A stretch of DNA of 64,000 bases from contig OZ024741.1 of the NCBI GenBank assembly GCA_964016885.1, forward strand, positions 319,548,001-319,612,000, read 5' to 3'. Positions 39,213 to 56,746 of the stretch are shown here, piece after piece. The notes below the pieces were generated by a model. That model saw only the letters and a list, made by a program, of their open reading frames with translations, was not told the origin of the DNA and did not search any database. Origin of the DNA: Eledone cirrhosa (taxonomy: Eukaryota). The position numbers and the translations under genes were made by a program. Numbering within the stretch: the stretch's first letter is position 1; each line of letters opens with the position of its first letter.

Positions 39213-40112
39213 AGTGGTAGAACACTGGAAGGTAATATCCGTAGTGGTAGAGCACTCAGTCCATGGGAAGAGTTAGATACAAGTGGTTACACAACAGTTA
39301 GTTCACCATACCGAGAACAATTGTTTCACCTTAGCGGATCCTCAGCTTATAATGGACATGGTTATACGGAACAGGAAGGACAACCGTACGAACGCGCATA
39401 CGCAGAAACGATCACTTCACACAGGCAATACTAAATTGTGTACGAGAGGTGTAAGGGAGATAACTGTGAAAGTCCGAAAGTTTCTAGTTGATAAGAAAAT
39501 TAGGATGTTGTTGTAATTCAATCCGGAGCTTTGTAGTTATGTAAGAGGTGTTTCCAGACGTGTGGACAACGTGTGAAGAATTCATTTCTCGTGTTTAGGC
39601 AATCACTATTGCGTAATCTCTTTAGAATATTTATTCGTTCATCAATACATAGTCCACACGACGGATTTCCCCTTGCGTATGGTTTGGACTTAGTGATGAC
39701 TTTCCATTGAATGGAGTAGTCTATACTTGAGTCCTTGAGGGACCATAGGGGGCTCGCGACTTTCGTGGATGAACGTCTTTCCGGGTACCTAAAGGTCGAC
39801 TGGTGGTTCAGGAAGCATTCCTTAAATCGGCCCTCCACCATACCCACATAGGATTTGACCTCCTGTGGTTGATTTGGTCGGTTGGACATCCTAATTTTCT
39901 TATCAACTAGAAACTTTTGGACTTTCGCAGTTATCTCCCTTACACCTCTTGCACGCAAGTTAGTATTGCCTGTGTGAAGTGATCGTTTCTGTGCATGCGC
40001 GTTCGTATGGTTGTCCTTCCTGTTCCGTATAACCATGTCCATTACGAGCTGAGGATCTGCTAAGGTGAAACAATTGTTCTCGGTATGGTGAACTAACTGT
40101 TGTGTAACCACT
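39213..40112 (-). mobile_element. Truncated PLE (GIY-YIG C-terminus) with inverted pLTR, hammerhead and tail
   Basis: ~39880-39518 encodes SYVG..RFK..NH..LW.LK..W..CGLC..E..LNTRNE..CPH, a different PLE lineage from Naiad. Arms 39281-39506 and 39886-40112. Tail at 39213-39280. Confidence 0.85.
40045..40082 (+). ncRNA. Minimal type-I hammerhead ribozyme motif
   Basis: CGAG-CUGAGGA-(short stem II)-GAA-ACAAUUGU-U-CUCG: stem I CGAG/CUCG and a palindromic stem III. Confidence 0.75.
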
Positions 40113-50164: not shown

Positions 50165-50189
50165 ATATATATATATATATGTATATGTA

Positions 50190-50237
<48 letters not shown>

Positions 50238-50280
50238 TAATATAGATGAGATTCTACAGGACTAGAACTGTTTCATTCTT

Positions 50281-50334
50281 TAGAGCGCTCGCTTAGCGTG
50301 CGAGAGGTACCGGGATCGATGCCCGGATTCTCCA
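50281..50334 (+). pseudogene. tRNA-Ala(AGC) 3' fragment lacking the first ~19 nt
   Basis: TAGAGC D-arm end, anticodon arm CTCGC-TTAGCGT-GCGAG, T arm CCGGG-ATCGATG-CCCGG, acceptor strand ATTCTCC-A with U70. No added CCA. Confidence 0.88.
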
Positions 50335-50339
50335 GTGAA

Positions 50340-50390
50340 AGATTCCTGATGATTTCTAAAGAATGAAACAGTTCTAGTCCTGTAGAATCT
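50340..50390 (+). ncRNA. Type-I hammerhead ribozyme
   Basis: Stem I AGAUUC/GAAUCU, core CUGAUGA, stem II U-UUCU aa AGAA-U, GAA, stem III ACAG/CUGU with an 8-nt loop, GUA triplet. Confidence 0.82.
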
Positions 50391-50472
50391 CATCTATATT
50401 AAAACTTTTATACTCTGCTATGTATTGAGTACCTTACTTACTGTGGTTACCTCCGATTCAACCCGGAATAAC

Positions 50473-50534
<62 letters not shown>

Positions 50535-51003
50535 CGTTTCTGAATTTTTTTAGCAAGATTCTTTATCTGAAATCGTGTGTTGAAACCGATATTGTTATAC
50601 TTTGGGAGGGTCATGTTGCCAATAAGAAACACACGCACCAGTTGCTTTCACTTCAATTTATTATATATTTATAAATTTATAAATTTACAAATCTACAAAC
50701 TTATAAATTTCTGGTTGGTTGGTTGGTTCCACAACCAGATAGTTGTTTATATATAGTCATAGTCCTTTTGTCACACACTCTGTGACCTCTTCAGTGACTG
50801 GGGATTCCTTTCTTTGTTTCTGTGCCTTTCCTTTCTTCTGTCCTACGCCATTTTGTTTCTGTGTGTGTGTTGTGTGCTCAGTTTGCGCATGCGCCACATC
50901 CGGGTGTCTGTGTGTGTTTGTGTTCATTTATCTATTTGTTTATTTATTTACATGTTGTTGGTTGGTTGTTTGTTCTATGTGTGTGTGTGTTTTCATTTTG
51001 TCC

Positions 51004-52150
51004 TTAATTGTAAGTTGTGATGTTGCTGTTCAACTCATATTTTCTATTTAATTTTGGTTGTAATTCTTTTATGCTTACTGCCTCTGTAATTTGCCTAAAC
51101 ATTGCATCTTTTCTGTGTGTGGATTCTATTTTTATTTCTATGTTCTCTAATTTACCCTTGTGTTCTATCTTAGCATGTTGGTAGAGTACAGATGATTCTT
51201 TATTATCTTGAAGGTCTCGCCAGTGTTCATTTATCCGTTCCCCTATACTACGAGCTGTCTCACCTATGTACACTATATTTTTGTTTCTACATTGTCCTTC
51301 AGTACATCTTATGCTATACACTACATTTCTAGTTTTAAAGTTAATATGGGGGCTTATTTTACAGGTTCTACATTTCTTATCTATACATGAGGGTCTTTGG
51401 AACGGGTATGTCTTGCTAATAAGTGTTTTTACGGAGGTACCTGGTCTTTCTACTATCTTAATATTGAGATTATGTTTATTTAGGGCCCTTCTAAATTTGT
51501 AGGCTAGTTCGCCTCTAGGGGTTGTATTGATGAACATTACACTCTGGTATTTATTGCTATCATACCATGAGTTTATTCTATTGGCCTTGTTCCTAGTTCT
51601 TTCTATTCTATTCCAAAATTTGCTCCTATACAAGGGGCAGGTCCCATTTATGTCATTATTTACTATTTTTTCCCATTTGGTTCTGGCTCCTCTATACACT
51701 CTGATTCTATCTCTCTGATTGTAGCCAGAGAACTGCATACGGTGGATGAAGTGTTGTATGTGTCTCTCTAGTTCTTCGGGGTTGCACATGCGGGACACAT
51801 TTCTCATCACCCGTACCAAATCCGCAACCAGTATGTTGATTTTCGTATGGTCCGAAATGGCCGAGTTTCGGTGGATCAGATGTTTGGAAGTCATGGGTTT
51901 GGCATAATGGGAATGGAGGATTTGTTTTTGGTTGTTAATGGTATCTAACCAGAGCTCTGTGTCTAGTACAGGTAATCGATGGTTGGGGTGTCTACTTGGG
52001 TAGTCTATAGTAACTCTAATGCTCTGGTGGATGGAGTTTGCTATTTTCTGGATGCTTTCCATTGTGTTTTTCTCTAGTTCCTGACTGTTCTCTAGTGGGG
52101 GTGTCTTAACTACGATGTTTATATCATCTACGATGTTTATATCATCTACG
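51004..52150 (-). pseudogene. Inverted partial copy of the PLE ORF (RT C-terminus and GIY-YIG)
   Basis: ORF 51004..52062 is almost identical to the last 352 aa of ORF 53141..55114. Confidence 0.9.
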
Positions 52151-52607: not shown

Positions 52608-55114
52608 GTGGAAAGAGACAGGAGTAATTGTGAGAGACATAGAAACAACCATGAGGCTGTTGGTGGAAATAGAAATAGAAACAACACAACTAACAATAAC
52701 AATAGCACTAGTACACATAAAGCAGCAGCCTGGAACTCTCCGTTTTATAATCCCTCCGATAAATCATTCGACCTGCGACGAGTCCACGCCACGACTTTAC
52801 CATTTAACAAACGCACGCAGTTGCCGTCGCAGGTCGATGAACAAACAGAAGCACAATTTAGTATAGCTAGATCCGAACTTAGAAATATTATAGAACAGTA
52901 TAGCAAGAAGCATAATAGGATAGAGGCCCAGTAACTGGGAGAAAAATCTGCAAATGGCTTGCGTAAGCTCATGCAGCGCTCACGTAATGGAGAGATAGCA
53001 TGCTTCCCAACAGACAAGTCTGGCAGAATGTCGGTTGACAGCCTGCCAAACTACATCCAGGCAATGCAACCCACATCACTAACACAAGAGAGGTAACACC
53101 ACAGGAGCATGAGGATAGAGAAAAAGCCCTCAATGCCCATATGGTGATGTGGACGAATATAATGCAGCCCAACAAAAGGACTGCCAACAACTTCCAGGCC
53201 TGGAACAATGACGTGCCGGCGTTGTATGGGATTCAAAAAGACCATAAAACGGGCTGTGACCCTGTCGCGGGACCACCAACACGGCCAGTCTGTGGAGCTA
53301 ACATTGCTAGTAACTACAGACTGTCCTACTTCCTCTCCCTGATCATACGCCCCATCATTGAGATGTCCCCAGATGTATGTGACAGCACGGAGGATCTCCT
53401 CAGCAGAATCGGCGTGGGTAACCGATCTGGGGACCTAACAAACTGCATAATAGGCAGTATGGATGTTGTGTCCCTGTATCCATCTATTGACGTGGATTTT
53501 GCTGTGGAGAAATGCGTAGAAATGATCAGCGAGAGCAAGGTTGAGTTCCGTGGGATTGATACCAGTGAGCTGGGACTTCTACTTAAGCTTACCCATAGTA
53601 ATAGTTACCTAGACACTTATGACCTTAGCAACCTGTGCCCTACAAGACCAGCAAGAGGCAGACCACCTACCATTACCTCAATGGCCAACAAAACCCACAC
53701 AGATAGATGGAACGGGTGGACCAGAGCCATACGGACACCCGAAAACCACGATGAACTGAAGAAAATGATTGCACATGCGGTAGGGGCCAGCATAAAATTA
53801 ACCCTTAAGGAACATATGTTCAAATTTAATGGAAAAACATGTGCCCAAGAGGAAGGAACAGCCATTGGTGTTAGCATTGTAGGCGACATAGCTAACTTAT
53901 TCATGGTATGGTGGGACAGTAGACTTAAACTTAAACTTAAAGAACAATTAGAAGACAGCTTAACCCTGATAATGTACTCCCGCTACGTAGAGGATATAAA
54001 CATCGTAGTTAAGACACCCCCACTAGAGAACAGTCAGGAACTAGAGAAAAACACAATGGAAAGCATCCAGAAAATAGCAAACTCCATCCACCAGAGCATT
54101 AGAGTTACTATAGACTACCCAAGTAGACACCCCAACCATCGATTACCTGTACTAGACACAGAGCTCTGGTTAGATACCATTAACAACCAAAAACAAATCC
54201 TCCATTCCCATTATGCCAAACCCATGACTTCCAAACATCTGATCCACCGAAACTCGGCCATTTCGGACCATACGAAAATCAACATACTGATTGCGGATTT
54301 GGTACGGGTGATGAGAAATGTGTCCCGCATGTGCAACCCCGAAGAACTAGAGAGACACATACAACACTTCATCCACCGTATGCAGTTCTCTGGCTACAAT
54401 CAGAGAGATAGAATCAGAGTGTATAGAGGAGCCAGAACTAAATGGGAAAAAATGGTAAATAATGACATAAATGGGACCTGCCCCTTGTATAGGAGCAAAT
54501 TTTGGAATAGAATAGAAAGAACTAGGAACAAGGCCAATAGAATAAACTCATGGTATGATAGCAATAAATATCAGAGTGTAATGTTCATCAATACAACCCC
54601 TAGAGGCGAACTAGCCTACACATTTAGAAGGGCCCTAAATAAACATAAACTCAATATTAAGATAGTAGAAAGACCAGGTACCTCCGTAAAAACACTTATT
54701 AGCAAGATATACCCGTTCCAAAGACCCTCATGTATAGATAAGAAATGTATAACCTGTAAAATAAGCCCCCATATTAACTGTAAAACTAGAAATGTAGTGT
54801 ATAGCATAAGATGTACTGAAGGACAATGTAGAAACAAAAATATAGTGTACATAGGTGAGACAGCTCGTAGTATAGGGGAACGGATAAATGAACACTGGCG
54901 AGACCTTCAAGATAATAAAGAATCATCTGTACTCTACCAACATGCTAAGATAGAACACAAGGGTAAATTAGAGAACATAGAAATAAAAATAGAATCCACA
55001 CACAGAAAAGATGCAATGTTTAGGCAAATTACAGAGGCAGTAAGCATAAAAGAATTACAACCAAAATTAAGTAGAAAATATGAGTGGAACAGCAACATCA
55101 CAACTTACAATTAA
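52608..55114 (+). pseudogene. PLE RT and GIY-YIG endonuclease ORF, disrupted
   Basis: N-terminal TDKSG motif (~53010) lies upstream of a frameshift (~53072), with a TAA at 52932. Motifs KDHK, RPVC, SMDVVSLYPSI, GTAIG..MVWWD, RYVED (expected DD), DYPS.H..LPVLD, Cys linker, VVY..YIGETAR. Naiad assignment is from motif recognition only. Confidence 0.88.
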
Positions 55115-55318
55115 GGACAAAATGAAAACACACACACACATAGAACAAACAACCAACCAACAACATGTAAATAAATAAACAAATAGATAAATGAACACAA
55201 ACACACACAGACACCCGGATGTGGCGCATGCGCAAACTGAGCACACAACACACACACAGAAACAAAATGGCGTAGGACAGAAGAAAGGAAAAGCACAGAA
55301 ACAAAGAAAGGAATCCCC

Positions 55319-55363
55319 AGTCACTGAAGAGGTCACAGAGTGTGTGACGAAAGGACTATGACT
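55319..55363 (+). ncRNA. Minimal type-I hammerhead in the Naiad pLTR
   Basis: AGUCA-CUGAAGA-G-GUCACA gagug UGUGAC-GAA-AGgaCU-A-UGACU. Identical at 18487-18531. The inverted copy at 50755-50799 has G12 changed to A. Confidence 0.78.
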
Positions 55364-55521
55364 ATATATAAACAACTATCTGGTTGTGGAACCAACCAAC
55401 CAACCAGAAATTTATAAGTTTGTAGATTTGTAAATTTATAAATTTATAAATATATAATAAATTGAAGTGAAAGCAACTGGTGCGTGTGTTTCTTATTGGC
55501 AACATGACCCTCCCAAAGTAT

Positions 55522-56746
<1,225 letters not shown>

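Follow-up and report, generated by a model that had tools for sequence, protein, structure and literature searches.

PLEs of the Hydra clade have a C-terminal GIY-YIG domain, RWK-like, DKT, CxCx5C, CxxC and CxH motifs, a hammerhead, (TA)n targeting and copies that are cut short at the 5' end and come with an inverted partner plus a tail, as described in the available part of PMC8557442. The PLE of Eledone cirrhosa that supplies the hammerhead and tail of the locus reported here matches them in its C-terminal GIY-YIG, its motifs, its hammerhead, its (TA)n sites, its truncated and inverted copies and its tail, a likeness drawn from motifs, but it differs in a 2.8-kb low-complexity 3' region and in about 8,000 exact copies of its tail. 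No captured tRNA is described for Hydra-clade PLEs in that part of PMC8557442, whereas the Eledone locus carries one. The Poseidon PLE PAc of Anolis shares with the Eledone PLE a hammerhead at the pLTR/ORF junction, an AT-rich target and two ends flanking the tail; it belongs to a different clade, and jumping onto foreign RNA is not reported for it in the available sections of PMC11167929.

Outside the PLEs, the U6/L1 and tRNA/L1 chimeras are attributed to recruitment in the nucleus and have been proposed as a route to new SINEs (PMC4476161 and PMC11838501, in the portions available). The Eledone locus resembles them as a rare, single-copy Pol III RNA lying 5' of a truncated retroelement; it differs in that the retroelement is a PLE, in having no poly(A) and no discernible TSD and in carrying its cargo inside a fold-back. 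The Eledone captures are also sense, precursor-form tRNAs, whereas the 21 tRNA/L1 chimeras described in those portions of PMC11838501 are mostly antisense halves. The marks of a template-switch chimera are present here, namely a cellular RNA 5' of a truncated retroelement and RNA-type ends, the latter being a tRNA trailer, a G at tRNA position 37 (G37) and, at a second locus (L038), a terminator.

The schistosome Sm-alpha and Sj-alpha elements have a tRNA-like head. Their likeness to the Eledone locus lies in layout alone, a Pol III-type sequence followed by a hammerhead; they are amplified, transcribed and arranged in tandem according to the part of PMC6765202 available, whereas the Eledone locus is single-copy and lacks an A box. 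Metazoan non-LTR retrozymes likewise are short non-coding units with a type I hammerhead, but they form tandem non-autonomous families (PMC7229834, available part), whereas the unit studied here is the end of an ORF-bearing autonomous element; a retrozyme reading was rejected on the ground that the unit heads an ORF. Our literature search found no report of tRNA capture by a PLE or of PLE-mobilised tRNA SINEs, of which supplements, Repbase and Dfam could list examples. The best reading of the locus and its counterparts is likely one of recurrent template jumps of a PLE RT onto nuclear pre-tRNAs, like the U6/L1 and tRNA/L1 chimeras.

The locus lies in a 64,000-nt stretch of the E. cirrhosa assembly (contig OZ024741.1, positions 319,548,001 to 319,612,000), hereafter the window. 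It sits between two (TA)n microsatellites (50165..50233 and 50474..50532, no strand assigned), as do most of the PLE copies viewed, and these would mask any TSD around the whole unit. From left to right, an inverted short PLE arm (50235..50284, minus strand) is followed, all on the plus strand, by nt 20-73 of a tRNA-Ala(AGC) (50281..50334), by the first 7 nt of a pre-tRNA 3' trailer (50335..50341) and by the 134-nt end of an autonomous PLE (50340..50473). The last of these is called the core, +1 being the predicted transcription start and +134 the end of the tail; it opens with a type I hammerhead motif (50340..50390), predicted to be cleaved after 50384, and closes with a bulged hairpin that terminates the long (tail) end (50446..50472). 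The arm is a 50-nt exact reverse complement of 50355-50404 (core +16..+65) and overlaps the tRNA by a 4-nt microhomology, TAGA (50281..50284), while the last two trailer nucleotides, AG (50340..50341), are also the first of the PLE start. The inverted terminus at the left end, the TAGA overlap and the hairpin-bearing tail within (TA)n had all been claimed in the original prediction, and each was borne out. A 1,544-nt inverted repeat of 99% identity adjoins the locus (50589-52132 and 53986-55529), and a further copy of it occurs near 17545-18697.

The tRNA piece was compared with a tRNA-Ala(AGC) gene of the same genome, L032. As predicted, 50281-50334 is a tRNA-Ala(AGC) 3' fragment, equal to nt 20-73 of the gene with one difference; nt 1-19, including the A box, are absent and only the B box is left. 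Rfam returned a 5'-truncated tRNA match (22.4 bits, below the gathering threshold of 29), and ARAGORN called no tRNA in the 64-kb window. The discriminator is directly followed by the gene's own 7-nt trailer, which agrees with the predicted absence of CCA; the bases taken earlier for a 5-nt spacer between tRNA and hammerhead are thus this trailer, identical to that of L032. Over the 61 nt of tRNA and trailer together, the sole mismatch to the gene is A>G at tRNA position 37 (50298, plus strand), likely a scar of inosine-37 editing. In eukaryotic tRNA-Ala, A37 is deaminated to inosine by ADAT1 and read as G, and G37 is seen in human pre-tRNA-Ala(AGC) reads from trailer-bearing precursors (PMC4446420, available part). 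When the anticodon arm was searched as a pattern across the E. cirrhosa genome, A37 was found in 216 of the 218 matches and G37 in two, both of them retro-chimeras: the window copy and L179 (1476-1640; G000:C26:2105510). L179 holds a tRNA-Ala(TGC) with leader bases, G37, A58>T, several further differences from tRNA genes and a SINE-like 3' tail, lies in a microsatellite and is likely a retro-chimera made by another machinery; its G37 supports an RNA template only weakly to moderately. Because the trailer is kept and the sole mismatch is the base expected from inosine 37, the tRNA piece was probably copied from an immature, edited RNA rather than from DNA. For the window, the case for editing depends on a single base, which can be chance, but that base is the expected one. 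Genes for tRNA-Ala(AGC) and tRNA-Ala(TGC) also alternate in a tandem array with a period near 1.28 kb (G000:C1:426.67-426.74 Mb; L041-L050).

The hammerhead had been described as fully paired and of type I. The type I motif with an intact core stood up, with CUGAUGA at 50346, GAAA at 50365 and GUA at 50382-84, as did 6 bp in stem I and 4 bp in stem III; "fully paired" slightly overstates a weak stem II, which has 3 bp and a U-U and lacks the usual G10.1-C11.1 pair. The hammerhead fold has a predicted energy of -4.2 against -7.6 kcal/mol for the minimum and is not the predicted lowest-energy fold, and Rfam matched the motif to Hammerhead_3 alone (13.4 bits, E 3.5). Among 188 motif matches, which include some loci fetched more than once and come to 81 distinct ones, variation is free in loop II but the stems are kept, and a sister PLE subfamily carries a compensatory change in stem I. 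Since the variants keep the stems while loop II varies and the sister subfamily compensates in stem I, the motif is, by its pattern of variation, real and still under selection, with cleavage activity predicted.

The original prediction had called for an autonomous PLE sharing 50340-50473, and one was found. The terminal 31-mer of the tail has 7,997 exact copies in the genome, and a search with 50281-50473 gave, among the best 40 of 472 candidates, other matches that nearly all start at the hammerhead. Following long copies upstream led to a GIY-YIG-like frame, and querying the genome with this frame yielded 150 scored matches that are 97-100% identical, many of them in open frames of 758 codons. 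In all four elements fetched, core 1-134 heads an intact 758-codon frame and the 3' end repeats core 1-67 or 1-73; the window core differs from full-length elements at 1-4 of 134 positions. The window unit is therefore the end (pLTR) of a young, abundant autonomous PLE. The protein bears RWR, DKT, YRDD, CxCx5C, CxxC, CxH and YIG motifs, which recur individually in 99-120 of 120 homologs (108-118 for the Hydra-type RWR, DKT, CxCx5C and CxxC/CxH), and two cysteines between the GIY-like and YIG motifs (a CCHH finger check of the cysteines alone). The RT domain is named from its motifs alone, Pfam and PDB searches with the protein having returned no RT match, and Pfam GIY-YIG matched the ORF below the cut-off only. 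The family is placed with the Hydra clade on its motifs and its (TA)n target. The hallmarks of an EN+ PLE insertion are present, namely a single ORF with RT and C-terminal GIY-YIG (relatives), a pLTR with an inverted truncated copy, and a hammerhead in the pLTR. The PLE character claimed for hammerhead, tail and arm thus holds in the 758-codon elements and in the copies, where an inverted arm was scored by script in 59 of 90. These 90 copies were the first of 100 listed places of the terminal 31-mer, all on C1. A large head-to-head inverted pair of this PLE was observed at L082 (1133-8089). In the 3' region of the element there, TA/TG low-complexity sequence spans about 2 kb, and a possible splice donor lies close to where it starts.

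Two further loci carry a tRNA fused to this kind of PLE end. At L038 (1416-1608; G000:C1:310432618), an inverted arm of core 1-60 is followed by a whole tRNA-Ala(AGC) with trailer and then by core 103-134, so that the tRNA joins the PLE at core +103 and not at +1; the trailer differs from that of the window and ends at an oligo-T terminator, and position 37 is A. At L194 (1460-1730, minus strand; G000:C14:35690771), a whole tRNA-Ser(TGA) is fused at core +1 to the hammerhead of a sister PLE subfamily, beside a long inverted copy. This tRNA has 3 leader nucleotides, 1 trailer nucleotide, an 8-nt deletion in the variable arm and a changed A box, and no T4 run precedes the hammerhead. With the best 40 of 44 candidates scored, its closest relatives proved to be tRNA genes of 79-82% identity, so the L194 fusion is, judged by these matches, single-copy and not amplified.

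Four pattern searches of the genome, aimed at tRNA captures that retain a B box, gave these three different tRNA/PLE junctions, each once among the matches listed. The first had 5 matches, the window and 4 Rfam-negative loci, among which L091 is a tRNA-SINE head. A T-stem change kept L038 out of this search, so such patterns undercount captures. The second had 10, consisting of the window, L038 and 8 Rfam-negative loci. Among the 100 matches listed of 155 in the third, 80 were one satellite, and L194 alone of the 19 other non-window loci listed had a tRNA at the junction. The 27 matches viewed in the fourth were L038 and mostly neighbouring or later-inserted tRNA-SINEs. Capture of pre-tRNA has likely recurred, the window, L038 and L194 appearing from their differing junctions to be independent single-copy events at fold-back junctions; three captures among many thousand PLE copies is the scale of rare accidents, comparable to the 21 tRNA/L1 chimeras of PMC11838501. 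At six other loci (L091, L214, L225, L226, L228 and L230), PLE arms lie against the heads of tRNA-SINEs, separated by little (TA)n or none, an arrangement compatible with capture of SINE RNA or with later SINE insertion. At L227 a SINE splits a PLE core with a short duplication, which fits later insertion.

A DNA template could also be considered, a host polymerase having copied 61 nt of a tRNA-Ala gene in break repair and G37 being a later mutation. We consider such a filler unlikely. The microhomologies of 4 and 2 nt at the two ends suit it, and tRNA-Ala genes are abundant (216 matches), with L038 lying 0.8 Mb from a tRNA-Ala cluster. Local DNA fillers also occur in the PLE family, since at L108 and L113 the sequence before the PLE end duplicates DNA that lies a few hundred bases off, so DNA-templated repair acts at such junctions. 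However, no tRNA gene lies within the 64-kb window, and the one mismatch is at the ADAT1 site and shows the base expected there, in a copy that otherwise matches others exactly over 135 nt. In three of three captures, moreover, the copied sequence never extends beyond the pre-tRNA and is sense to the downstream PLE piece, and that of L038 ends at the terminator. An assembly chimera is barely credible: the junction is known from the assembly alone, but the same architecture recurs at three different loci, with ends in a biologically sensible order and a base of the kind that editing gives. Logan contigs from 4 runs (2 samples, 1 study) covered the repeat, with no listed piece spanning the stretch.

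The original prediction had read the locus as one member, truncated at its 5' end, of a family of tRNA-hammerhead SINEs that Pol III drives and PLE proteins mobilise. The sense order of tRNA and hammerhead would suit such a family, Pol III elements with a hammerhead exist in schistosomes (PMC6765202, available part), and in L194 a whole tRNA leads into the hammerhead without an intervening T4 run. The exact tRNA-end/hammerhead junction, however, has a single match in the 3.0-Gb genome, and no tRNA was found at the junction in any of the 90 sampled PLE copies (printed junctions) or upstream of the hammerhead in the 29 other best-match loci fetched. The other two captures have junctions of their own, L038 with a terminator before the tail and L194 with its altered A box and a tRNA that is about 82% identical to genes. 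A SINE is expected to share its 3' end with an autonomous partner, and this unit does, simply as that PLE's own end; the multi-copy common head-body junction and the internal Pol III promoter of A and B boxes that are also expected of a SINE are absent. The prediction had itself named a unique junction, and a hammerhead and tail tied to PLE ORF sequence, as evidence against a SINE; what was found is a unique junction, and a hammerhead and tail at both ends of ORF copies. The claimed Pol III-driven non-autonomous family therefore does not hold, a tRNA-derived SINE family was rejected, and as an account of the locus it is very improbable. The tRNA is captured cargo and not the head of an element, and the window locus is a dead single copy rather than the new SINE class proposed. 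The template switch invoked in the same prediction fared better, being supported by the trailer, G37 and a single-copy junction with RNA-type ends.

We consider it probable that the locus is a single-copy, A-box-less chimera that arose when a PLE RT jumped off its own RNA onto a nuclear pre-tRNA-Ala. In Anolis, the PLE protein makes cuts in each strand of AT-rich DNA, and cDNA synthesis begins at two internal sites, one on either side of the tail (PMC11167929, available part). By analogy, the Eledone PLE protein would nick both (TA)n strands and prime cDNA on its RNA at about +134 and at +60 to +73, giving long and short arms in inverted arrangement; the ends seen in copies, near +134 and +60 to +73, agree with such two-site priming. 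At the other end, 42 of the 90 sampled copies start between -20 and +10 (36 of them at -1..+10), 24 reach more than 20 nt into the native upstream region and 24 start further in than +10. Of 18 distinct copies that keep the native upstream region, all 18 have TATAAA starting at -30 or -31, and most have CCAAT at -84. Core +1 fits an initiator consensus. Thus +1 may be a Pol II start at which cDNA often ends, and the TATA-positioned cluster would account in a simple way for the many 134-nt copies. The cluster might instead mark a 3' splice site: the native upstream region also has a pyrimidine tract and CAG, and in D. virilis the Penelope intron ends at helix I (PMC4209133, available part) and the Penelope promoter is TATA-less (PMC2377424, available part). 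It may also reflect stalling of the RT at stem I.

With +1 as the putative transcription start, cDNA would run off there and must jump or be joined, and two of the three captures (window and L194) do join at core +1. In the window, the cDNA end would pair with the AG (2 nt) of the pre-tRNA trailer and copy the tRNA, the RT reading inosine 37 as G and reaching tRNA nt 20, and the tRNA-side cDNA end would then be joined to the other arm through TAGA. Such a product would be dead, having neither A box nor upstream promoter, and L038 and L194 are likely products of the same accident. A different route, in which a tRNA was ligated to PLE RNA by an RtcB-type enzyme or reverse-transcribed by the RT of a different retroelement and afterwards fixed in a PLE break, appears quite improbable. 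The order of tRNA then PLE fits ligation, RtcB is known to ligate hammerhead products (PMC7229834, available part), and L179 shows other machinery copying tRNA-Ala in this genome. But the junctions fall at core +1, +1 and +103, away from the hammerhead cut (+45/+46) that would create a 5' end fit for ligation, and the microhomology at the junction fits annealing; joining at the cut site was rejected, no junction being there. Template jumping would leave the three loci as genomic footprints bearing both on how PLEs build inverted and tandem insertions and on how they copy non-self RNAs, and by their structure they suggest that PLE RT jumps onto host nuclear RNAs. A broader scheme is tentative: PLE RTs would make strong-stop-like cDNA from their own start and jump repeatedly onto pre-tRNAs, fixing inosine 37, and fusions of the L194 type, in which a complete tRNA with A and B boxes adjoins the hammerhead directly, would seed Sm-alpha-like Pol III/hammerhead elements and PLE-dependent SINEs.

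The satellite that makes up 80 of the 100 matches listed in one junction search lies at G000:C28:30.49-30.80 Mb (L200-L209). It consists of tandem units of ~78 nt (core -10..+68), each with a whole hammerhead motif, and would give a multimeric hammerhead RNA if transcribed. Elsewhere in the window, 39560-39856 (minus strand) holds a remnant of another PLE endonuclease at 34% identity, and hammerhead-core-like motifs occur at 39345, 40049, 21541, 22051, 45536 and 12422, two of them as inverted pairs; by sequence, the remnant and these motifs are assigned to other PLE families.
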